NCBI RefSeq assembly: GCF_003334315.1
Contig: NZ_QOWR01000009.1
Length of the DNA stretch: 64,000 bases
Reading direction: 5' to 3' (one strand)
DNA from: Escherichia coli
GTDB taxonomy: Bacteria > Pseudomonadota > Gammaproteobacteria > Enterobacterales > Enterobacteriaceae
A program made the position numbers and the translations under genes. The notes beneath the pieces were generated by a model. The model was not told the DNA's origin. It made no database searches and saw nothing but the letters and a program-made list of their open reading frames with translations. Below, in pieces: positions 1 through 55,330 of this stretch; position 1 is the stretch's first letter; each line of letters begins with the position of its first letter.

Positions 1-395
1 ATATAAATGCGGCGTTTCGCTGTGTCCGTGCAGTCCTGCCGCATATGATTGCGCAGAGGTCGGGCGATATAATTTTTACCAGTTCCATCGCGGGCGTCGT
101 TCCGGTTATCTGGGAACCGATCTACACCGCGTCCAAATTTGCCGTTCAGGCATTCGTACACACTACCCGCCGCCAGGTTTCTCAATATGGCGTGCGTGTG
201 GGTGCGGTGCTGCCAGGACCAGTAGTCACTGCCCTGCTTGATGACTGGCCAAAAGCCAAAATGGAAGAAGCCCTGGCAAATGGTAGCCTGATGCAACCGA
301 TTGAAGTGGCGGAATCAGTATTGTTTATGGTGACCCGCTCGAAAAATGTCACCGTGCGAGATTTAGTGATCCTGCCTGGCAGTGTCGATCTGTAA
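1..395 (+). CDS. rbtD: Ribitol 2-dehydrogenase (short-chain dehydrogenase/reductase), 5'-truncated by the window edge; the reading frame is open from position 3
   Basis: Frame is open from the window start into ORF 45..395. The C-terminal sequence (...[29 protein letters not shown]...[11 protein letters not shown]...) has the SDR catalytic Y-x3-K and closely matches Klebsiella/E. coli C ribitol dehydrogenase as I remember it. Confidence 0.8.
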
Positions 396-405
396 GGGCG
401 CAATC

Positions 406-2010
406 ATGACAATAACCAAAACCGTTATTGGTGTTGATGTGGGATCAGGCAGTGTCCGCGCCGGGATTTTTGATCTCAACGGATCTCTGCTATCCCATGC
501 CACAGAAAAAATCACGACTACGCGGCGCAGCGGAAGCCGCGTGGAACAGTCCAGCCAGGAGATCTGGCAGGCGGTCTGTTCATGTATTCGTAATGCGCTC
601 ACTCTGGCAGACGTTTGTGCACAAAGTGTGGCAGGCATCGGTTTTGATGCCACCTGTTCTCTGGTGGTACTGGATAAAAACGGTGATCCATTGCCTGTCA
701 GCCCGGAAGGAGATGCAAAGCAAAATATCATTGTGTGGATGGATCACCGCGCCACCGAACAAGCAGAGCGAATCAATGCCACTCACCATCCGGTGCTGAA
801 CTACGTCGGTGGTAAAATTTCGCCTGAAATGGAAACACCGAAAATTCTCTGGCTGAAAGAAAATATGCCAGAGATCTACGAACGTGCCGGACAATTTTTC
901 GATCTGGCCGATTTTCTGACCTGGCGGGCTACCGGTGATTTAGCGCGTTCAGTATGCACTGTTACCTGTAAATGGACGTGGCTGGCACATGAAAATCGCT
1001 GGGATCCAGATTATTTCCGCACCATTGGCCTTGCAGAGTTAGCGGATGAAGATTTTATTCGCATTGGTCATCATATTGTTTCTCCCGGAACACCTTGTGG
1101 AAATGGTTTAACAGCACAAGCCGCGGCAGAGATGGGATTACTCCCCGGCACACCTGTCGCTGTAGGGTTAATTGATGCTCACGCTGGTGGCATCGGTACG
1201 GTTGGCGTAGAAGGTGGAGCGCTGAACAATCTCGCGTATGTTTTCGGCACTTCTTCATGCACCATGGCATCTACCACTTCTCCCTCGTTTGTACCGGGTG
1301 TCTGGGGGCCGTATTACAGTGCGATGGTTCCAGGTCTGTGGTTAGTTGAAGGCGGGCAAAGTGCTGCGGGAGCAGCTATTGACCAGCTACTTGATTTCCA
1401 TCCGGCTGTTGAAGAAGCTCGCGAAATGGCACAACGTGTGAATCAGCCCCTCCCCGTCTGGCTTGCTGATCGAATCCTCGAAAAAACGGCGCAACCATCA
1501 GATGCTGTCGCCCTGGCGAAAGGGCTACACGTGGTGCCGGAATTTCTCGGAAATCGCGCCCCCTTCGCAGATCCTCATGCCAGAGCGGTAATTTGTGGCC
1601 TGGGTATGGAGCGAGATCTGGATAATTTACTCGCCTTGTATATCGCTGGATTATGCGGAATTGGTTATGGTCTGCGCCAAATTCTCGACGCTCAAACAGC
1701 GCAGGGAGTAGTGAGTAAAAATATCGTTATTAGCGGCGGTGCCGGGCAGCATCCACTGGTACGACAAATTCTGGCAGATACCTGCGGTATTCCGGTCATT
1801 ACCACGCAATGCTGCGAACCGGTTTTATTAGGCTCGGCCATTCTTGGTGCTGTCGCCGGAAATATTGCACCTTCTGTTGGCGAAGCGATGCAACAATTCA
1901 CCCATGTGGATAAATATTATTATCCGCAAGAACGCTATCAATCTCTTCATCATCGTCGATATGAGGCCTATAAGCAGTTGCAGCATACTGCAAAATTACT
2001 CAGAGACTAA
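406..2010 (+). CDS. rbtK: D-ribulokinase, FGGY carbohydrate kinase family
   Basis: The N-terminal motif IGVDVGSGSVRAGIFD is typical of FGGY kinases and the protein is about 534 aa. It lies directly downstream of rbtD. Start chosen at the second ATG (406), which follows the rbtD stop and an AGGG Shine-Dalgarno-like sequence. Confidence 0.75.
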   Translation: MTITKTVIGVDVGSGSVRAGIFDLNGSLLSHATEKITTTRRSGSRVEQSSQEIWQAVCSCIRNALTLADVCAQSVAGIGFDATCSLVVLDKNGDPLPVSPEGDAKQNIIVWMDHRATEQAERINATHHPVLNYVGGKISPEMETPKILWLKENMPEIYERAGQFFDLADFLTWRATGDLARSVCTVTCKWTWLAHENRWDPDYFRTIGLAELADEDFIRIGHHIVSPGTPCGNGLTAQAAAEMGLLPGTPVAVGLIDAHAGGIGTVGVEGGALNNLAYVFGTSSCTMASTTSPSFVPGVWGPYYSAMVPGLWLVEGGQSAAGAAIDQLLDFHPAVEEAREMAQRVNQPLPVWLADRILEKTAQPSDAVALAKGLHVVPEFLGNRAPFADPHARAVICGLGMERDLDNLLALYIAGLCGIGYGLRQILDAQTAQGVVSKNIVISGGAGQHPLVRQILADTCGIPVITTQCCEPVLLGSAILGAVAGNIAPSVGEAMQQFTHVDKYYYPQERYQSLHHRRYEAYKQLQHTAKLLRD

Positions 2011-2111
2011 TTAACCAGCCGCCTGACGCTGTTTTCAGGCAATCACTAATAACGACTCACTCCGGTAATATCCCGGAGTGCATTCATCTGCACCCTAAAA
2101 ACGAGGTTTAT

Positions 2112-3386
2112 ATGTCCAGAAATAATAAACAGTGGTTGGGTTTGCCACTGCATCTGATATGGGGATATATCGCCATCGCAGTATTTATGACTGGTGATGG
2201 TTTCGAACTCGCATTCTTATCGCACTATATTAAATCGTTAGGCTTCACACCTGCGGAAGCCTCTTTTGCCTTTACGCTCTACGGCCTGGCGGCTGCCCTT
2301 TCCGCCTGGGTTTCTGGGGTAGTAGCGGAAATCATCACGCCGCAAAAAACCATGCTGATTGGTTTTGTCCTATGGTGCGTATTCCATGTTCTGTTTCTGG
2401 TCTTTGGATTAGGACAGGCAAACTATGGGTTAATCCTGCTGTTTTACGGGATTCGTGGTTTAGCGTATCCGCTATTTCTCTACTCATTTATCGTCGTTAT
2501 TATTCATAACGTGCGTAGCGAAAATTCCAGTTCTGCTCTGGGTTGGTACTGGGCGGTATATTCAGTAGGGATCGGTGTTGCTGGCAGTTATATTCCCAGT
2601 TTTACGATACCGATTATGGGTGAAATGGGAACCTTATGGCTGGCACTGGCGTTCTGCTTTGCTGGCGGTGTCATTGCCATGATCTCCTTGCGTCATGTTA
2701 AAACGCCTGGACATATGCATAATTTAACTCCCCGTGAGAAGTTTGCAGAATTAAGTCGGGCAGTAACTTTACTTTATACCAACCGCAATATTTTTCTCTC
2801 CAGTATTGTGCGCATTATAAATACCTTATCGTTATTCGGTTTTGCGGTCATTATGCCAATGATGTTTGTGGATGAACTGGGATTCACCACCTCTGAATGG
2901 TTGCAGGTCTGGGCGGCATTTTTCTTTACCACTATTTTCTCTAATATTTTTTGGGGGATTGTGGCAGAAAAAATGGGCTGGATGCGTGTTATTCGCTGGT
3001 TTGGTTGCCTCGGGATGGCAGCATCAAGTTTAGCGTTTTACTACATGCCGCAATACTTTGGTCACAACTACTGGATGGCAATGATTCCGGCGATTGCTCT
3101 GGGAACTTTTGTTGCTGCATTTGTGCCGATGGCCGCTGTCTTCCCGGCACTGGAACCAAAACACAAAGGTGCTGCAATCTCGGTTTACAACCTCTCTGCG
3201 GGTATGTCTAACTTCCTGGCTCCGGCAATTGCCGTGGTGTTATTACCGTGGTTTAGCACTATCGGTGTGGTCATTGCCTATACAGCATTGTATCTATTGG
3301 CCTTTGTCCTTTGCGCATTCATTCGCGTTGAGCAGCCAGGATTCAGTTCTGCGCCAGTGACTGAGAAGGCATTGAATATCTCCTGA
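2112..3386 (+). CDS. Polytopic membrane transporter (MFS-like), probable ribitol/pentitol permease
   Basis: 424-aa highly hydrophobic ORF with about 12 predicted helices and a GAGG ribosome-binding site; position after rbtD-rbtK suggests the substrate. Confidence 0.6.
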   Translation: MSRNNKQWLGLPLHLIWGYIAIAVFMTGDGFELAFLSHYIKSLGFTPAEASFAFTLYGLAAALSAWVSGVVAEIITPQKTMLIGFVLWCVFHVLFLVFGLGQANYGLILLFYGIRGLAYPLFLYSFIVVIIHNVRSENSSSALGWYWAVYSVGIGVAGSYIPSFTIPIMGEMGTLWLALAFCFAGGVIAMISLRHVKTPGHMHNLTPREKFAELSRAVTLLYTNRNIFLSSIVRIINTLSLFGFAVIMPMMFVDELGFTTSEWLQVWAAFFFTTIFSNIFWGIVAEKMGWMRVIRWFGCLGMAASSLAFYYMPQYFGHNYWMAMIPAIALGTFVAAFVPMAAVFPALEPKHKGAAISVYNLSAGMSNFLAPAIAVVLLPWFSTIGVVIAYTALYLLAFVLCAFIRVEQPGFSSAPVTEKALNIS

Positions 3387-3408
3387 AAAACGAAACGCAT
3401 CAGGCACT

Positions 3409-3434
3409 CATCCTCTCCCTCATGGGAGAGGATG
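3409..3434. terminator. Bidirectional intrinsic terminator hairpin between the convergent transporter gene and fbaB
   Basis: Perfect 11-bp inverted repeat CATCCTCTCCC/GGGAGAGGATG with a 4-nt loop, flanked by an A-rich run upstream and T-rich sequence downstream. Confidence 0.5.
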
Positions 3435-3442
3435 ATTTCACA

Positions 3443-13240: not shown

Positions 13241-13259
13241 TCGGAGAGAGGGGGAAATG
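13241..13259. terminator. Bidirectional terminator hairpin between rcnB and yehA
   Basis: CCCCCTC-ggaga-GAGGGGG stem-loop flanked by an A-run and T-rich sequence, between convergent genes. Confidence 0.45.
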
Positions 13260-22404: not shown

Positions 22405-25400
22405 ATGAGACACTTTATCTATCAGGACGAAAAATCACATAAATTCTGGGCGGTGGAGCAACAGGGAAACGAGTTGCATATCAGTTGGGGAAAAGTTGGC
22501 ACCAAAGGGCAAAGTCAGATAAAAAGTTTTTCAGATGCTGCGGCAGCGGAAAAAGCGGAACTTAAGCTGATTGCGGAGAAGGTGAAGAAGGGGTATGTGG
22601 AGCAAGCGAAGGATAATTCTTTGCAACCTTCCCAAACGGTAACGGGCTCTCTCAAGGTAGCGGACTTATCCACCATTATTCAGGAACAACCCTCTTTCGT
22701 AGCAGAAACCCGTGCGCCTGACAAAAATACAGATGCTGTTTTACCGTGGCTGGCGAAAGATATTGCTGTCGTTTTTCCGCCCGAAGTTGTACACACCACG
22801 TTAAGTCATCGCCGCTTTCCCGGAGTTCCTGTTCAGCAAGCAGACAAATTGACCCAATTACGTCGCTTAGCCTGTAGTGTGTCGCAACGGGATAATAAAA
22901 CAGCCACATTTGACTTCAGCGCCTGTTCTTTAGAATGGCAAAACACCGTCGCCCAGGCGATCAGTCAGATCGACGGCCTGAAAACAACACAGTTACCATC
23001 ACCAGTAATGGCTGTACTCACGGCACTTGAAATGAAATGCACAAGATATAAAGTGCGTGAGGATGTTATGGATCAGATCGTCCAGGAAGGCGGTCTGGAA
23101 TATGCTACTGATGTAATAATACACCTTCAACAGATTGATATTGAATGGGATTATGCGAATAATGTCATTATTATTCTGCCGTCTGGCATTGCACCTAGCT
23201 ACTTGGAGCAATATTCCAGATTTGAATTACGCCTACGTAAACATTTATCACTGACGGAAGAGTCTCTCTGGCAAAAATGTGCACAAAAACTTATTGCCGC
23301 AATTCCACATATTCCAGAATGGCGGCAACCATTAATTGCTTTGTTATTACCCGAAAAACCAGAAATTGCACATGAAATTGCCCAGCGTCTACTGGGGCAA
23401 AAAAAATTACCCTCGCTTGAGTGGTTAAAAATAGTGGCGACTGATGAGCACATTCTTGCCTCATTAGAAAAATATCACGAACCATATGCCATTTTTGATG
23501 ATTACTATTGTGGTGCGATATGGTCAGCCACCGTATTACAGGAGCAAGGTGTTGCAGCCCTGCCCCGATTTGCTCCCTATGCCGCAAGTGACTACTGCGC
23601 CGATGTGTTGCGTCATATCAATCATCCGTTCGCATTGACACTGCTTATACGTGTAGCCGGGCAAACTAAACGCTGTCACGATCGGATGACGAAAGCCATT
23701 GCTGCGTTCCCACATGCAGCAATGGCGGCACTGACGGAACTTCTTGGGCAAAAAGAAGAGAACAGTTGGCGCATTATGCTAATGACAATGCTTATCTCAC
23801 AACCAGCACTGGCAGAACAGGTCATTCCCTGGCTCTCGACACCCGCAGTTGCCGTACTGAAATCATGCCAGCAACAACTGACACAGCCCTCAAACCATGC
23901 CAGCGCCGATCTACTGCCAGCCGTAGTAGTCTCCCCTCCCTGGCTTTCGAAAAAGAAAAAATCGCCGATTCCGGTGCTGGATTTAGCGCCATTAGGCATT
24001 GAGCCAATCTGTTATCTGACAGAAGAAATCAGTAATCAACTTTTGGCGAAATATATCTGGTATTCAAAACACATCACGGTTAGCCATGAAGAAAGTACTA
24101 CCAACCTGTTGGCAAGGATGGGTTTTCAACGACGGATCGCTGGTACATATATTAAAGCTCCCGAAGCGGTAGTTGAGGCATGGCTAAATGAAGATTATTC
24201 AACCTTACTAAGTGAATTTAAGGTGTTTCATTCACCTACCGGGCATTATTGGCAGTTGGGGATTTTGACAACATTGCCGCTGGAGAAAGCAGTAAAAGCA
24301 TGGAATGCCCTTACCCTATCTCCACATACCGATACCGAATACTCCATGTTACATTTTGGACTCAAAGGGTTACCTGGGTTAGTAAACTCACTTGCACGCT
24401 ATCCACAAGAAGCCTTGCCCATCACGAATTACTTCGCAGCGAGTGAGCTGGCTCCTGCCGTCGCCCGTGCCTTCAACAAACTGAAAACGCTACGCGAAAA
24501 CGCCCGTAGCTGGCTGTTGAAATACCCGGAACATGCCCTTACCGGCCTGCTGCCTGCGGCGCTCGGCAAAGCCGGTGAAGCACAGGATAACGCCCGCGCT
24601 GCCTTGCGTATGCTTACCGAAAACGGTCATCAGCCATTACTGCAAGAAATCGCCCGACGTTATAACCAGCCGGAAGTAACCGATGCGGTGAACGCTCTGC
24701 TTGCGCTCGATCCCTTAGATAATCACCCGACAAAAATCCCCACTCTTCCGGCCTTTTATCAGCCATCGCTCTGGACGCGCCCGGTATTAAAAGCAAATGC
24801 CCAATCACTGCCAGATAGCGCCCTCCTCCACCTCGGTGAAATGCTCCGCTTCCCTCAGGAAGAGGCTCTGTATCCGGGATTATTGCAGGTGAAAGACGTC
24901 TGTTCCGCCGACTCACTGGCGGGATTTGCCTGGGATCTGTTTACCGCCTGGCAGACCGCTGGCGCGCCGTCGAAAGAGAGTTGGGCGTTCACTGCGTTAG
25001 GCGTTCTCGGTAACGATGACACCGCCCGCAAACTGACGCCATTAATACGCGCCTGGCCTGGTGAATCCCAGCATAAACGCGCCACCGTTGGGTTGGATAT
25101 TCTCGCTGCTATCGGTAGTGATATCGCCCTTATGCAGCTTAACGGCATCGCCCAGAAACTGAAATTCAAAGCATTACAGGAGCGGGCAAAAGAAAAAATT
25201 GCCGACATTGCCGAGAGCCGCGAACTCACGGTGGCGGAGCTTGAAGATCGGTTAGCACCGGATCTCGGTCTGGATGATAACGGTTCGCTGCTGCTGGATT
25301 TTGGCCCACGGCAGTTCACCGTCAGCTTTGATGAAACCTTAAAACCGTTTGTGCGTGATGTTTCCGGCAGCCGCCTGAAGGACCTGCCCAAACCGAACAA

Positions 25401-26199
25401 AAGCGATGATGAAACGCGGGCGAACGATGCGGTTAACCGCTACAAATTGCTGAAAAAAGATGCGCGTACCATCGCCGCCCAGCAGGTAGCAAGGCTGGAA
25501 TCCGCCATGTGCCTGCGCCGCCGCTGGTCGCTGGAAAACTTCCAGCTCTTCCTGGTTGAGCATCCGCTGGTTCGTCACTTAACCCGCCGTCTGATTTGGG
25601 GCGTTTATAGCGCCGAAAACCAGCTACTGGCTTGCTTTCGCGTAGCAGAAGATAACAGCTCCAGCACCGCTGACGATGATCTTTTCACCCTGCCGGAAGG
25701 CGATATCTCTATCGGCACTCCTCACGTTCTGGAAATATCACCAACGGATGCTGCCGCCTTTGGTCAGCTTTTTGCCGACTACGAACTGCTACCACCGTTC
25801 CGCCAGCTCGACCGTAACAGCTACGCCCTGACAGAAGCCGAGCGCAATGCCAGTGAACTGACCCGCTGGGCAGGCAGAAAATGCCCGAGTGGTCGGGTCA
25901 TGGGGCTGGCGAATAAAGGCTGGATAAAGGGCGAACCACAGGATGGAGGCTGGATCGGATGGATGATCAAACCTTTGGGTCGCTGGTCGTTAATCATGGA
26001 AATCGATGAAGGCTTTGCGGTAGGCATGTCGCCAGCCGAACTCAGCGCTGAGCAGCTCTTAAGCAAGCTGTGGCTATGGGAAGGCAAAGCAGAAAGATAT
26101 GGCTGGGGGAGTAATTCAACACAGGAAGCGCAGTTCTCCGTAATCGATGCCATCACCGCCAGCGAGCTAATTAACGATATTGAAGCCCTGTTTGAATAA
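22405..26199 (+). CDS. molR: Giant WGR-domain protein (so-called molybdate metabolism regulator), intact here
   Basis: Uninterrupted 1264-aa ORF. The N-terminal ~80 aa form a WGR domain (FWAVEQQGNELHISWGKVGTKGQ...). The rest is paralogous to YehI. Confidence 0.8.
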   Translation: MRHFIYQDEKSHKFWAVEQQGNELHISWGKVGTKGQSQIKSFSDAAAAEKAELKLIAEKVKKGYVEQAKDNSLQPSQTVTGSLKVADLSTIIQEQPSFVAETRAPDKNTDAVLPWLAKDIAVVFPPEVVHTTLSHRRFPGVPVQQADKLTQLRRLACSVSQRDNKTATFDFSACSLEWQNTVAQAISQIDGLKTTQLPSPVMAVLTALEMKCTRYKVREDVMDQIVQEGGLEYATDVIIHLQQIDIEWDYANNVIIILPSGIAPSYLEQYSRFELRLRKHLSLTEESLWQKCAQKLIAAIPHIPEWRQPLIALLLPEKPEIAHEIAQRLLGQKKLPSLEWLKIVATDEHILASLEKYHEPYAIFDDYYCGAIWSATVLQEQGVAALPRFAPYAASDYCADVLRHINHPFALTLLIRVAGQTKRCHDRMTKAIAAFPHAAMAALTELLGQKEENSWRIMLMTMLISQPALAEQVIPWLSTPAVAVLKSCQQQLTQPSNHASADLLPAVVVSPPWLSKKKKSPIPVLDLAPLGIEPICYLTEEISNQLLAKYIWYSKHITVSHEESTTNLLARMGFQRRIAGTYIKAPEAVVEAWLNEDYSTLLSEFKVFHSPTGHYWQLGILTTLPLEKAVKAWNALTLSPHTDTEYSMLHFGLKGLPGLVNSLARYPQEALPITNYFAASELAPAVARAFNKLKTLRENARSWLLKYPEHALTGLLPAALGKAGEAQDNARAALRMLTENGHQPLLQEIARRYNQPEVTDAVNALLALDPLDNHPTKIPTLPAFYQPSLWTRPVLKANAQSLPDSALLHLGEMLRFPQEEALYPGLLQVKDVCSADSLAGFAWDLFTAWQTAGAPSKESWAFTALGVLGNDDTARKLTPLIRAWPGESQHKRATVGLDILAAIGSDIALMQLNGIAQKLKFKALQERAKEKIADIAESRELTVAELEDRLAPDLGLDDNGSLLLDFGPRQFTVSFDETLKPFVRDVSGSRLKDLPKPNKSDDETRANDAVNRYKLLKKDARTIAAQQVARLESAMCLRRRWSLENFQLFLVEHPLVRHLTRRLIWGVYSAENQLLACFRVAEDNSSSTADDDLFTLPEGDISIGTPHVLEISPTDAAAFGQLFADYELLPPFRQLDRNSYALTEAERNASELTRWAGRKCPSGRVMGLANKGWIKGEPQDGGWIGWMIKPLGRWSLIMEIDEGFAVGMSPAELSAEQLLSKLWLWEGKAERYGWGSNSTQEAQFSVIDAITASELINDIEALFE

Positions 26200-30525: not shown

Positions 30526-31613
30526 ATGTCACCGCAGAATAATCATCTGCAGCGTCCGCCTGCTGCTGTGTTATACGCCGATGAACTGGCAAAATTAAAA
30601 CAAAATGATAACGCACCTTGCCCGCCCGGTTGGCAGTTAAGTTTGCCTGCGGCCCGTGCTTTTATCCTTGGCGACGAAGCGCAAAATATCAGCCGTAAAG
30701 TGGTGATTAGCCCCTCCGCTGTCGAACGTATGTTAGTCACTCTTGCTACCGGCCGCGGTTTGATGTTGGTGGGGGAACCGGGTACCGCAAAATCTCTTCT
30801 TTCTGAATTACTGGCAACCGCTATTAGCGGCGATGCCGGGTTAACCATCCAGGGCGGGGCATCTACCACCGAAGATCAAATCAAGTATGGCTGGAACTAC
30901 GCCCTGCTTATCAATCATGGTCCGTCAACGGAAGCGCTGGTCCCTGCCCCGCTTTATCAGGGAATGCGCGACGGCAAAATCGTCCGTTTCGAAGAGATAA
31001 CGCGTACACCGCTGGAAGTGCAGGACTGTCTGTTAGGTATGCTTTCTGACAGGGTGATGACGGTGCCGGAACTCACTGGTGAAGCCAGTCAGCTCTATGC
31101 GCGAGAAGGCTTTAATATTATTGCCACTGCCAATACCCGCGATCGCGGCGTCAATGAAATGAGTGCTGCGCTAAAGCGTCGCTTCGATTTTGAAACGGTT
31201 TTTCCGATTATGGATTTCGCCCAGGAGTTGGAACTGGTCGCCAGTGCTTCGGCGCGTTTGCTGGCCCATAGCGGTATTCCGCATAAAGTGCCTGACGCGG
31301 TACTGGAATTACTGGTCCGCACCTTCCGCGATCTGCGTGCCAACGGCGAAAAGAAAACGTCAATGGATACACTGACAGCGATTATGTCCACCGCTGAAGC
31401 CGTGAACGTGCCCATGCTGTGGGCGTCCGCGCCTGGTTTTTAGCGAATCGCGCGGGGGAGCCTGCCGACCTGGTGGAATGTATTGCCGGAACCATCGTCA
31501 AAGATAACGAAGAAGATCGCGCGCGTCTGCGCCGTTACTTCGAACAGCGTGTCGCCACACATAAAGAAGCTCACTGGCAGGCTTATTATCAAGCCCGCCA
31601 CCGCCTGCCGTGA
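30526..31613 (+). pseudogene. yehL: MoxR-type AAA+ ATPase, reading frame broken by a frameshift near 31395-31443
   Basis: Walker A (VGEPGTAKS) lies in ORF 30460..31443. The C-terminal part continues in a different frame (ORF 31419..31613) and ends 10 nt before the yehM start. The span is 1088 nt against the 1089 nt expected for the 362 aa I recall for K-12 YehL. Confidence 0.65.
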
Positions 31614-31623
31614 GGAAAGATGC

Positions 31624-33903
31624 ATGAGCGAGCCGTTAATTGTCGGCATCCGGCATCATAGTCCGGCCTGCGCCCGGCTGGTGAAATCGTTAATCGAAAG
31701 CCAGCGGCCACGATACGTGTTGATTGAAGGCCCGGCTGATTTTAATGACCGGGTAGACGAACTGTTTTTAGCCCACCAGCTTCCGGTAGCTATTTACAGT
31801 TATTGCCAGTATCAGGACGGTGCAGCCCCCGGGCGTGGTGCCTGGACGCCATTTGCTGAATTTTCGCCGGAGTGGCAGGCGCTACAAGCCGCACGTCGCA
31901 TTCAGGCACAAACTTACTTCATCGATTTGCCTTGCTGGGCGCAGAGTGAAGAAGAGGACGATTCGCCTGATACGCAAGATGAAAGCCAGGCCTTACTGCT
32001 GCGTGCCACCCGCATGGATAACAGCGATACCCTGTGGGATCACTTGTTCGAAGATGAAAGCCAGCAAACTGCATTACCCTCTGCGCTGGCGCACTATTTT
32101 GCCCAACTGCGGGGCGACGCCTCCGGCGATGCGCTCAATCGTCAGCGCGAAGCCTTTATGGCCCGCTGGATTGGATGGGCGATGCAGCAAAATAATGGCG
32201 ACGTGTTAGTTGTCTGCGGTGGCTGGCACGCTCCGGCACTGGCAAAGATGTGGCGCGAATGCCCTCAGAAAATTAACAAGCCAGAATTGCCCTCGCTGGC
32301 AGATGCCGTTACAGGTTGTTATCTCACACCCTACAGTGAAAAGCGCCTTGATGTGCTGGCAGGATACCTTTCAGGAATGCCTGCCCCGGTATGGCAAAAC
32401 TGGTGCTGGCAGTGGGGCTTGCAGAAGGCCGGTGAACAACTGCTAAAAACTATCCTTACCCGTTTGCGCCAGCACAAATTGCCCGCTTCTACCGCGGATA
32501 TGGCTGCCGCTCATCTGCATGCGATGGCGCTGGCACAGTTGCGCGGTCATACACTACCGTTACGCACTGACTGGCTGGATGCCATAGCAGGCTCGCTGAT
32601 TAAAGAAGCCCTGAACGCGCCGTTGCCGTGGAGCTATCGCGGCGTTATTCATCCCGATACCGATCCGATTCTGCTAACGTTGATAGACACATTAGCGGGT
32701 GACGGATTCGGTAAACTTGCCCCTTCTACGCCACAACCGCCTCTGCCAAAAGATGTCACCTGCGAACTGGAACGTACCGCAATCTCCCTTCCGGCGGAGC
32801 TTACCTTAAATCGCTTTACCCCCGATGGGCTGGCGCAAAGTCAGGTGTTACATCGGCTGGCAATACTGGAGATCCCTGGGATTGTACGCCAGCAGGGAAG
32901 TACACTGACACTTGCAGGCAACGGTGAAGAACGCTGGAAATTAACCCGCCCGCTTAGCCAGCATGCGGCATTGATTGAGGCCGCCTGTTTTGGTGCCACA
33001 CTCTAGGAAGCCGCACGCAATAAATTAGAAGCCGATATGCTGGACGCGGGCGGAATCGGCAGTATCACCACATGTCTTAGCCAGGAGGCGTTAGCGGGTC
33101 TGGCGTCCTTCAGTCAACAATTACTGGAGCAACTCACACTATTAATCGCCCAGGAAAATCAATTTGCCGAAATGGGCCAGGCGCTGGAAGTGCTTTATGC
33201 CTTATGGCGGCTGGATGAAATTAGCGGTATGCAAGGCGCGCAGATATTACAAACGACGTTATGCGCGACTATCGATCGCACGCTGTGGCTGTGTGAATCT
33301 AACGGCAGACCGGATGAAAAGGAGTTTCACGCTCACCTGCATAGCTGGCAAGCGCTTTGCCATATTCTGCGCGATCTACATAGCGGCGTTAATTTACCCG
33401 GCGTTTCTCTTTCTGCGGCGGTAGCCTTACTGGAGCGACGCAGTCAGGCAATTCATGCCCCGGCGCTGGATCGCGGCGCGGCTCTTGGCGCACTAATGCG
33501 TCTGGAACATCCCAACGCCAGTGCCGAAGCGGCGCTGACGATGCTGGCGCAGTTATCCCCGGCACAATCTGGTGAGGCGCTGCACGGTTTGCTGGCGCTG
33601 GCCCGCCATCAACTGGCCTGTCAGCCGGCATTTATCGCCGGTTTCAGCAGTCATTTAAATCAACTGAGTGAAGCCGATTTTATTAACGCCCTGCCCGATT
33701 TACGCGCGGCGATGGCCTGGCTACCACCACGAGAACGCGGGACGCTGGCGCATCAGGTGCTTGAGCATTATCAACTGGCGCAACTTCCCGTTTCGGCGCT
33801 GCAAATGCCGTTGCATTGTCCACCACAGGCCATTGCACATCATCAACAACTCGAACAGCAGGCACTGGCATCGCTGCAAAACTGGGGAGTTTTCCATGTC
33901 TGA
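31624..33903 (+). pseudogene. yehM: Large uncharacterised protein interrupted by an in-frame TAG at 33004-33006
   Basis: ORF 31483..33006 and ORF 33037..33903 are in the same frame, separated only by one amber codon. The total span is 2280 nt, exactly 759 codons plus stop. GAGGAAA ribosome-binding site before the ATG at 31624. Confidence 0.65.
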
Positions 33904-50799: not shown

Positions 50800-50972
50800 G
50801 ATGAGCATTCAGATAGTGGTTCACGCGCACGGGTTGCGCACCGCCGGAGTAAGGATTTACTGAGGCTAGCGACGCCATCATAACGAGCAAAAAGTGCGAT
50901 CGTCAAAGGAGAATCGTGAGGAAATGCTGCATTGCTGACATTTACGCCAGCAATGCAACGTCAAAGAACTTT

Positions 50973-52437: not shown

Positions 52438-53199
52438 CTATTCTGGGTTGAACTGTGGATTCGCCAACATAAAGCCGCCATCCACTATCAACGACTGCCC
52501 GGTGGTGTAATTTGCGCCCTCCGAACAAAGCCACACCACCAGGCTGGCAATCTCATGCGTTGCGCCAAAACGCCGCAAGGGAATCGAAGGCTCCGCGTCG
52601 GGCTTCACGTCGCTGTCATCCATGCCATTCATTGGCGTGGCGATCGCCCCAGGCGCGACTGCGTTCACCAAAATCTTATGCCTGACCAGCTCCAGCGCCA
52701 TCGCTTTGGTTAACCCACCGAGCGCATGTTTAGCGGCTGTGTAGGCGCTGGCATCCGGCAGCGGCGTATGTTCATGTACCGACGTAATGTTGATGATGCG
52801 ACCGCCCTGCCCTTGTTTCACCATCTGACGAGCCGCAATTTGCGAGCATAAGAATGCACCATCGACATCAACGGTAAAAATCTTGCGCCACTCATCAAAA
52901 GCCATATCAAGAAACGGCGCTTTGGTCATTGCACCCGCATTATTCACCAGCACATCAATGCGCCCCAGCCGTTGAATGAGTTTCTCCAGCGCCAGTGCCC
53001 CTTCTGGTAGATTGCCGAGATCCAGCTGCACGATCTCCGCACGTACGCCGTGGCTAACTACCTCACGCGCGGTATCTTTTGCCCCTTCTTCATCTGAGTG
53101 CCAGGTAATACCAATATCAAACCCCTGCTGCGCCAGTAATAACGCGCACTCTTTGCCGATCCCCGAATCGGAGGCGGTAATAATCGCAACCTGTGCCAT
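52438..53199 (-). CDS. yohF: Short-chain dehydrogenase/reductase
   Basis: 253 aa; Rossmann motif TASDSGIG and Y-x3-K. Confidence 0.85.
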   Translation of the reverse strand: MAQVAIITASDSGIGKECALLLAQQGFDIGITWHSDEEGAKDTAREVVSHGVRAEIVQLDLGNLPEGALALEKLIQRLGRIDVLVNNAGAMTKAPFLDMAFDEWRKIFTVDVDGAFLCSQIAARQMVKQGQGGRIINITSVHEHTPLPDASAYTAAKHALGGLTKAMALELVRHKILVNAVAPGAIATPMNGMDDSDVKPDAEPSIPLRRFGATHEIASLVVWLCSEGANYTTGQSLIVDGGFMLANPQFNPE

Positions 53200-53251: not shown

Positions 53252-54688
53252 TCAGCGTTTGTAACCCCCGCCCAACGCACCAGTGAGTTGAATGGAGGCA
53301 TCCAGCCACTGCCCTTGCAATAACAGGCCATTGGCCCGCTCACGCAGCGCGGGGATTCTGGCTTCGCTGACGCGGGAACCAGCAATGATGCCCGCGTTAA
53401 AGCGCGCCTGCGCAAGACCTACCACACGCAAGGCATCGCGCTCAATTTGCGCCTGATGCTGGTTTTTCTCCGCCAGTGTCTGAACCTGACTGGCTGCCCG
53501 CGCCACGTCATTCACCGCTTCAACCACCGCTTTGTTGTAGCTGGCGATAGACAAGTTGCTTTCGGCTTTTGCGATATCGAGATTGGCGTTAAGACGACCA
53601 CTATCGAAAATGGGTAGCGTCAGGCCTGCCGTAACGCCCATTTGCTGCGCGGAATGACGGAACAGATCGCTTAAGTGCAACGCATCCTGTTGCAGGAAGG
53701 CCATCAGGTTGATGTCAGGATAAAATGCCGCTTTTGCCGCATCAATGGTGCTTAGCGATGACTCAACGTACCAGTGCGCCGCCTGCAAATCTGCCCGCCG
53801 GGCCAGTAAGGAGTACCCCAGTTCATCAGGAAGCTGGCTTGCCACTTTCGGCAACGCGACCGGTTTAAGCTTCAATGACTTTGTCTGGTTATTTGTAAGT
53901 GCGCTTAACCGTGCCTCAATAATTTTCATTTTCCCCGCGACATCGTTGAGCTGCTGCCGGGTTTTGCTGGCATTAATATCGGTTTCCACACCTTCAACTG
54001 AAGAAGTAATCCCGTTCTGATATAGCTGGCGATCGGTCGCGATAATGGTGTTCTGCTCTTTTTCTATTTGCTGCAAGACCGTGTTTAACGCCGCCTGGGT
54101 TTGCCACTCCCAGTACAGGCGGGCTACGCTGCCAGCCAGCAATTGGCGGGTTTGCTCGCGTTCCGCCGCCCGTGCTTTAACCGTACCCAGGCGGGCAGTA
54201 ACCTCCGCCCGATTCTTTCCCCAGATATCGAGATGCCAGCCCGCCGTTAAGCCAAAAGTACCGTTGGTGTACCACGGGCCGGTCGTACCTGCGGCCGGAT
54301 CGTTCAGAGCAAACGGCCCCATTAAGCCTTCTGCCGACATTTTTTGCCGCTCCATATCCGCCGAAAAGTCGATCTGCGGACCATCCTGAGTGGCAACTGC
54401 CTTCGCCTGGGCTTCAGCTAGCTGAATGCGCTGTTCAGCCACCTGCATATCCGGTGCGTTCTGTAGTGCATTGTTAATTAAGGAAGTGAGTTGATTATCG
54501 TGATACTCCAGCCACCATTGGCTGTCTGGCCAACCATTTTTCAGCGCCGTGGGTAATGCGGTGTCAACTTGTGCAGCGGGCGTTTGCTGGCTTAACGCCT
54601 GGCGGGTTTCATGCATAGGCGCACACCCGGCCAGCATCAGTAACAGCGGAAAACAGGCGATGGCTGGATAAAAGGAATCACGATTCAT
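53252..54688 (-). CDS. mdtQ: Outer-membrane efflux lipoprotein (OMF/TolC-like), intact
   Basis: 478 aa from MNRDSFYPAIACFPLLLMLAGC (lipobox); no internal stops. Confidence 0.8.
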   Translation of the reverse strand: MNRDSFYPAIACFPLLLMLAGCAPMHETRQALSQQTPAAQVDTALPTALKNGWPDSQWWLEYHDNQLTSLINNALQNAPDMQVAEQRIQLAEAQAKAVATQDGPQIDFSADMERQKMSAEGLMGPFALNDPAAGTTGPWYTNGTFGLTAGWHLDIWGKNRAEVTARLGTVKARAAEREQTRQLLAGSVARLYWEWQTQAALNTVLQQIEKEQNTIIATDRQLYQNGITSSVEGVETDINASKTRQQLNDVAGKMKIIEARLSALTNNQTKSLKLKPVALPKVASQLPDELGYSLLARRADLQAAHWYVESSLSTIDAAKAAFYPDINLMAFLQQDALHLSDLFRHSAQQMGVTAGLTLPIFDSGRLNANLDIAKAESNLSIASYNKAVVEAVNDVARAASQVQTLAEKNQHQAQIERDALRVVGLAQARFNAGIIAGSRVSEARIPALRERANGLLLQGQWLDASIQLTGALGGGYKR

Positions 54689-54911
54689 GGGGGAATAATC
54701 AGGTAAGAAAAGGTGCGCGGAGATTACCGTGTGTTGCGATATATTTTTTAGTTTCGCGTGGCAATACATCAGTGGCAATAAAACGACATATCCAGAAAAA
54801 TATACACTAAGTGAATGATATCTTCCGATTTATCTTAATCGTTTATGGATAACGGCAAAGGGCTTCGTTTTTTCCTATACTTATTCAGCACTCACAAATA
54901 AAGGAACGCCA

Positions 54912-54995
54912 ATGAAAATTATACTCTGGGCTGTATTGATTATTTTCCTGATTGGGCTACTGGTGGTGACTGGCGTATTTAAGATGATATTTTAA
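54912..54995 (+). CDS. yohP: Small membrane protein (27 aa)
   Basis: MKIILWAVLIIFLIGLLVVTGVFKMIF with a GGAA Shine-Dalgarno-like sequence upstream. Confidence 0.7.
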   Translation: MKIILWAVLIIFLIGLLVVTGVFKMIF

Positions 54996-55079
54996 AATTA
55001 ATTAATGTCATCAGGTCCGAAAATAACGAGAATATTTCAGTCTCTCATCCTGTTGCGCTCCTGTCATGTGCATTGCTTC

Positions 55080-55330
55080 ATATAATCACTGGCGCAAGGA
55101 GCGCGCAGGGGGCGGCCAATCGCCGCCGCCCCCTGCACCCCCGGGCTCTGGCGAACAAAATCGCCGCTGCGCGGTGCCCTCGACTTATCCCTTACGGCTA
55201 CCGGGTCGGGCGCGAGGTAACATCCCTGTAAAACGCGCCCTCAGCCCACATCCATGTGGGCTGCCCCGGCCTTCAGGGAACGCCTCGGCAATTTTGACGC
55301 CACCAAACAACCGTGCGGCCTATTGATAAA
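55080..55330. repeat. GC-rich, highly palindromic non-coding island (unclassified intergenic repeat or structured element)
   Basis: Perfect 11-bp stem CAGGGGGCGGC/GCCGCCCCCTG at 55106..55135; 8-bp stem AGCCCACA/TGTGGGCT at 55243..55262; G+C is far above the flanking sequence. Confidence 0.4.

Follow-up and report, generated by a model that had tools for sequence, protein, structure and literature searches.

The gene mdtQ (yohG) is carried by Escherichia coli K-12 as a pseudogene, and an apparently unbroken copy in another strain raises the question of whether that copy encodes a working outer membrane channel, and whether its integrity says anything about the strain in which it is found. We have examined this for a 64,000-nucleotide stretch of an E. 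coli contig (NZ_QOWR01000009.1; hereafter 'the window'), for which a preliminary description had reported mdtQ as a single open frame. Our principal reading, to which we would assign a probability of roughly 85%, is that the window holds the ancestral, intact allele of a chromosomal core gene encoding a NodT-type outer membrane factor (OMF) lipoprotein.

The mdtQ reading frame and its lipoprotein signal

The coding sequence lies on the minus strand at positions 53252-54688, with its ATG at 54688-54686 and its TGA at 53254-53252, and comprises 479 codons including the stop; the preliminary description gave this 478-residue frame exactly but left its strand unstated. The chance of 478 sense codons staying open is around 1e-10. 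A TTG at 54778, which marks the limit of the mechanically called frame, was considered as the start, but the ATG at 54688 is preferred because it is the RefSeq start, because the NCBIfam match spans residues 1-478 of 478, and because the N-terminal M-N-R is conserved in Escherichia, Salmonella and Citrobacter, where M-N-R and a further stretch, G-C-A-P-M-H, are invariant in MdtQ.

That the gene is indeed mdtQ follows from the NCBIfam equivalog model NF008524, which the protein matches at 1024.4 bits (cutoff 650) with residues 1-478 falling on profile positions 1-478 of 478; the NodT subfamily model TIGR01845 is matched at 274 bits (cutoff 210.05). At the level of DNA, the gene is 100% identical to the RefSeq-annotated mdtQ (WP_001078139.1) of many E. 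coli.

Codons 1-22 (54623-54688, minus strand) specify a lipoprotein signal peptide, identified by regular expression and in the translation, with the N-terminus reading MNRDSFYPAIACFPLLLMLAGC-APMH. The lipobox noted previously is canonical (L19-A20-G21-C22), its Cys22 (54623-54625) is invariant across 128 homologues, and the residue at +2 is Ala, not Asp.

The lesion in K-12

The MG1655 counterpart, b2139, carries a pseudogene annotation and measures 1436 bp, and in K-12 derivatives RefSeq marks the gene as 'frameshifted'; the frameshift is found directly by alignment, so that the earlier account of a disrupted K-12 gene proves correct. Historically, this pseudogene was split as yohG/yohH. 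The two alleles share a locus and a haplotype, and differ in just two respects. One is synonymous, and the sole substitution: Gly475 is GGT in the window and GGG in K-12 (53264, minus strand; gene position 1425). The other is a single-nucleotide deletion in a run of five A (T5 on the plus strand) at 54537-54541 on the minus strand (gene positions 148-152, codons K50-N51), which pairwise alignments show to be A4 in K-12. This loss of one A is the frameshift behind the b2139 pseudogene. Frame 0 of the K-12 gene runs for 69 codons to a stop, and the channel body is encoded in a different frame, lacking the signal peptide and any start codon before Met81; the deletion has thus cut off the channel body from its signal peptide, leaving K-12 null for MdtQ.

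Positions 3442-64000 of the window are collinear with K-12 at 99.64% identity, and from about 24 kb onwards there are 0-2 SNPs per 2 kb, with the proteins from yohC through to cdd identical. Given these near-identical flanks, we consider the frameshift to be recent, and to have arisen on an otherwise shared haplotype.

Several other departures from K-12 were recorded along the window. Over most of 3442-24000 there are 8-35 SNPs per 2 kb, as against 0-2 per 2 kb across 24000-64000, and this sharp drop at about 24 kb, near metG/yehF, suggests a recombination boundary or mosaic ancestry. Positions 1-3441 have no counterpart at the K-12 site, where the gatYZABCD operon abuts fbaB; they contain the C-terminal part of an SDR protein (45-395), a pentulose kinase of the FGGY family (382-2010; 920 bits to TIGR01315) and an MFS transporter of the RbtT/DalT/CsbX type (2112-3386; 515 bits to TIGR00897), in what looks like a ribitol/D-arabitol (pentitol) catabolic locus replacing the galactitol operon. 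At 13243-13248, within a GC-rich inverted repeat downstream of rcnB (CCCCTCGGAGAGAGGGG), a compensating +1/-1 indel pair relative to K-12 probably reflects variation in the loop of a hairpin or terminator. Besides mdtQ, another gene that K-12 carries in broken form is whole in the window: at 22405-26199 (plus strand), yehF and yehH form one continuous frame of 1264 residues; K-12 yehH (b4499) is a pseudogene owing to an extra G at K-12 position 2199319 (about 25250 in the window), with yehF annotated separately. Conversely, two genes of the yehLMPQ cluster are disrupted in the window when set against K-12: yehL (30526-31613, plus strand) has a one-nucleotide deletion near 31410, its frame ending at 31443, and yehM (31624-33903, plus strand) has an internal stop, such that its frame ends at 33006 rather than 33903.

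Distribution of the intact allele

Across complete E. coli genomes, mdtQ is present in 5421 of 5426, always on the chromosome and at 97.4-100% identity. A 75-mer spanning the intact A5 allele is matched exactly in 3263 genomes, with the other matching genomes at 95-99%, including 355 in which a 74-mer with the K-12 A4 allele is exact. Sixty of these 355 A4 carriers were listed and inspected, and every one is a K-12 laboratory derivative (MG1655, C600, DH1, DH5alpha, J53 and NCM3722 among them). Judged by sequence comparison, then, intact mdtQ is the ancestral norm of the species and K-12 is the exception. The preliminary description had put forward the intact gene as another difference from the laboratory reference, one that might provide this strain with an additional channel; the contrast with K-12 stands, but the strain-specific meaning does not, since a near-universal, species-typical allele tells us nothing particular about its carrier, and its presence implies no unusual resistance. 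Nor is the distinction itself new: a 2025 review of TolC describes mdtQ as core-conserved despite its K-12 pseudogene label, such that an intact mdtQ, with the K-12 pseudogene as a peculiarity of a laboratory lineage, is already known and documented (PMC11762307).

The wider locus is equally unexceptional. The order dusC-yohP-mdtQ-yohF-yohD-yohC-pbpG is common to the window, K-12 and other E. coli, and the position of mdtQ between dusC/yohP and yohF/yohD is matched in Salmonella too. The gene of strain 720632 is identical in DNA to that of the window over all 1437 nucleotides, alleles of other phylogroups differ by 1-10 amino acids, and there is no substantive difference from the MdtQ of non-K-12 E. 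coli, as represented by WP_001078139.1 or by the O157:H7 protein Q8X659 (used in PMC11762307).

These counts also bear on whether the open frame might be an artefact, the strain truly carrying the K-12 frameshift and the fifth A being a homopolymer-length error of assembly. The sole frame-relevant difference does fall in a five-base homopolymer, a typical site for sequencing errors, and the ~40 kb around it scarcely departs from K-12. However, A5 is the majority state, identical full-length genes occur in many strains, the frame continues uninterrupted in orthologues from other genera, and there are several further differences between the window and K-12, from which it follows that this is not a K-12 strain; we consider the chance of such an error to be negligible.

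Intact mdtQ is nonetheless lost from time to time. In the natural isolate PSS-11 (mdtQ at 701-2136 of its locus) there is an independent frameshift at codon 192; this, along with the internal stop for which yohF is annotated as a pseudogene in one Nissle 1917 assembly, may be genuine or may stem from an error of assembly. In Salmonella, mdtQ has been independently truncated in S. Typhi and Paratyphi A (PMC9241588). Taken with the lesion at codon 50 in K-12, these losses imply that mdtQ is dispensable in at least some niches.

Evidence for a functional protein

Whether an open frame corresponds to a sound channel is a separate matter, as it could conceal rearranged segments or the loss of residues conserved among OMFs. 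Alignment to the orthologues of E. albertii (94% identity) and of Salmonella and Citrobacter (80-81%), all of 478-479 residues, reveals no internal rearrangement and a gap at the last, C-terminal, residue only. In an alignment of 128 homologues, reaching down to 25% identity, the family-invariant residues C22, P79, R298, P324, P359 and G473 are all present in the window protein, as are 30 near-invariant columns. Compared pairwise, six E. coli alleles from separate lineages give dN/dS values between 0.04 and 0.19, which indicates strong purifying selection.

The predicted structure is in keeping with this. Pfam PF02321 identifies two OEP repeats on the minus strand, the first at residues 69-266 (53891-54484; E = 2.2e-17) and the second at residues 293-473 (53270-53812; E = 9.8e-13). 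An AlphaFold2 model of the monomer, built from the same alignment (pLDDT 90.4, pTM 0.86), is built of four strands and four helices, the latter 35-67 residues long, in a duplicated OMF topology; the first repeat has strands at 105-116 and 139-153 with long helices at 158-224 and 230-265, and the second has strands at 325-336 and 348-357 with long helices at 365-431 and 437-471. Foldseek places this model with VceC, CmeC, OprM, CusC, OprN, OprJ, SilC and MtrE in the PDB (probability 1.00, TM-score 0.75-0.89), and a sequence search of the PDB returns the same set, with VceC first at 1e-39.

One departure from the family is seen at the periplasmic tip, where MdtQ reads G433-I-I-A-G-S-R-V-S441-E-A443 against a consensus of G-L-x5-V-L-x-A, with S441 taking the place of the Leu found in most members. 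As the motif is invariant among MdtQ orthologues, we regard it as a feature of the lineage and not as a sign of decay. Altogether, the gene looks functional; the gapless orthologues, the retained residues, the two repeats and the predicted fold all uphold the intactness originally proposed, and the comparison with K-12 has, in addition, located the K-12 lesion.

Genomic neighbours and expression signals

Downstream of mdtQ by 52 nucleotides lies yohF (52438-53199, minus strand), which encodes an SDR oxidoreductase (PRK12743; NCBIfam, 484.8 bits). A terminator scan found no terminator-like site between the two, and they are possibly co-transcribed. Salmonella has the same arrangement, which also recurs with a 60%-identical relative, but we reject the idea of an obligatory functional pair, as Citrobacter keeps mdtQ without yohF. 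On the other side, the divergent upstream neighbour is yohP (54912-54995, plus strand), a small membrane protein of 27 residues that is identical to its K-12 counterpart. In strain 720632, an IS1A element (2248-2945 of its locus) sits directly upstream of the window-identical mdtQ, in place of the usual yohP, and could alter expression of the gene.

Two further elements were observed in the vicinity. Between yohP and dusC there is a GC-rich repeat at approximately 55052-55324, which yields a spurious 86-residue frame (55066-55326) and matches in position the TRIP1c repeat between yohG and yohI (dusC), a reported site of chromosomal rearrangement (PMC10888264). A Peptidase-S11 RNA motif (RF03039, 72.8 bits) is located at 50804-50884 on the minus strand, immediately upstream of pbpG; an Rfam scan of 50-58 kb gave nothing else.

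Alignment of the sequence ahead of mdtQ in E. coli, Salmonella and Citrobacter brings out a 27-nucleotide block, GATGTATTGCCACGCGAAACTAAAAAA, at 54744-54770 (minus strand; -82 to -56 relative to the ATG), where the three genera agree at 26 of 27 positions. In E. coli, a second copy of ATTGCCAC precedes it. From its conservation, we propose the block as a candidate promoter or regulator-binding site. A reported co-induction with MarA (PMC12584432) led us to consider it as a marbox, but the single match, with three mismatches, lies near yohP (0.48 expected by chance) and none falls on the block, and this identification was rejected. No recognisable Shine-Dalgarno sequence precedes the ATG (TTATTCCCCC-ATG), and a promoter scan upstream of mdtQ gave no convincing sigma-70 consensus, which together suggest low basal expression.

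Such weak signals invite the reading that mdtQ is intact but 'cryptic', being too poorly expressed, and without a dedicated partner, to contribute measurable efflux, with TolC doing the relevant work. The gene's orphan status in three genera (see below) and its repeated independent losses (K-12, PSS-11, and S. Typhi and Paratyphi A; PMC9241588) fit with this, as do the slight effects on intrinsic resistance that have been reported (PMC9241588, PMC11762307). The measured dN/dS, together with the 80-81% identity kept with Salmonella and Citrobacter, nevertheless requires a protein that is made and selected, and the upstream block is conserved across genera. Moreover, the products have been seen, and seen to respond to stress: in an E. 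coli isolate of porcine origin, MdtQ protein was detected and was up-regulated alongside MarA (PMC12584432), whilst the yohG transcript rises in Salmonella under hypochlorite (NaClO; PMC9065344) and in a ciprofloxacin-selected Salmonella strain (PMC5381912). We therefore think it improbable that mdtQ is cryptic.

A proposed model for assembly and partnership

By analogy with OprM, CusC, VceC and TolC, we propose a model for how MdtQ might reach the outer membrane and operate there. Sec would export the precursor and, as predicted from the lipobox, lipid would be attached at Cys22 and signal peptidase II would remove the signal peptide; with Ala at +2, the lipoprotein would then be expected to be sorted to the outer membrane by the Lol system. 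Four beta-strands and four long helices from each of three protomers would form a 12-stranded barrel continuous with a periplasmic alpha-helical tunnel, the tip of which may dock onto the periplasmic adaptor of an inner-membrane pump encoded elsewhere, so opening the exit duct. Lipidation, trimerisation, partnership with a pump and any part in drug efflux are all inferred here from these better-studied proteins.

As to the identity of the pump, inspection of the mdtQ neighbourhoods in E. coli, Salmonella and Citrobacter found no adjoining adaptor or pump gene, which makes MdtQ a conserved orphan. The genomic context of its relatives offers clues to a partner that are suggestive only, as the contigs in question are short metagenomic ones of 2-3.5 kb: a 42%-identical relative lies directly behind a gene for an MdtO-like permease, a 60%-identical one adjoins a YohF-like SDR gene, and a 37%-identical one is near a TetR-type regulator. 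VceC works with the MFS pump VceAB. Along with MdtP as the closest paralogue, VceC as the closest structure and the MdtO-like neighbour, this weakly hints that MdtQ belongs with non-RND pumps. We tentatively speculate, whilst considering it rather doubtful, that MdtQ is a selectively maintained, stress-inducible and TolC-independent duct for a pump encoded elsewhere, possibly of the FUSC/MFS type (MdtNO/AaeAB) and not RND; its physiology would then have gone unnoticed because the reference strain is a natural null.

A related proposal is that the cargo is not a drug at all, with MdtQ serving either in YohF-linked export of a metabolite or as the duct of an MdtNO- or AaeAB-like FUSC/MFS-type pump, again not RND. 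The proximity of yohF, with no terminator-like site intervening and the pairing repeated in Salmonella and beside the 60%-identical relative, is in its favour, and so too are the score against the MdtP model (356 bits), the MdtO-like permease next to the 42%-identical relative and the resemblance to VceC. Against this, the pairing is not obligatory, given the state of affairs in Citrobacter, the contexts of the distant relatives come from short contigs, and no experiment links MdtQ to any pump; we view this proposal as very unlikely.

Implications for efflux studies in K-12

Returning to the principal reading, of an ancestral gene that K-12 has lost, a practical consequence is that K-12 is in effect a null mutant for one of the four TolC-family channels of E. 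coli. Efflux genetics based on K-12 is thus uninformative on MdtQ, and phenotypes of yohG deletions made in K-12 need an explanation other than the channel. Drug susceptibilities for a yohG deletion are said to have been given by Sulavik et al. in 2001, in a strain that was reportedly K-12; if so, the phenotype is not attributable to the MdtQ channel. The same issue arises for the Keio yohG deletion, which was a hit for ciprofloxacin tolerance (PMC13131330). Were the TolC-independent duct that we tentatively propose to be real, phenotypes of this kind would represent polar effects on yohF/yohP, or on the conserved upstream element.

Relation to known outer membrane factors

The 2025 review already cited names three homologues of TolC in E. 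coli, MdtQ among them, states that MdtQ is encoded independently, and describes its function as 'not elucidated', with an AlphaFold model of the O157:H7 protein as its structural reference (PMC11762307). TolC itself shares with MdtQ a superfamily and an overall architecture, which Foldseek recovers at E ~1e-14 and a TM-score of 0.64-0.70, but the two are just 12-14% identical, and MdtQ scores 54 bits against the TolC model TIGR01844, under its cutoff of 225. TolC, moreover, is not a lipoprotein, unlike MdtQ as predicted here.

The likeness is closer to VceC of Vibrio cholerae (PDB 1yc9), OprM, CusC, CmeC, OprN, OprJ and MtrE, which have the fold, the two-repeat architecture and the lipid-anchor Cys of MdtQ; full-length sequence alignments are obtained at E = 1e-39 to 1e-16, albeit at an identity of only 18-26%. 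Members of the VceC/OprM/CusC group have known pump partners encoded alongside, whereas MdtQ is without such neighbours. They also differ at the periplasmic tip, which in MdtQ is specific to its lineage: OprM residues L412, D416 and R419, which have a role in the gate, align with S438, E442 and I445 of MdtQ.

Closest of all is MdtP, of the mdtNOP operon, which represents the nearest paralogue family; MdtQ matches its model (NF007390) over the full length at 356 bits, below the cutoff of 597. Although MdtP is encoded with the adaptor MdtN and the permease MdtO, and mdtQ stands alone, both proteins are lipoproteins of the NodT type.
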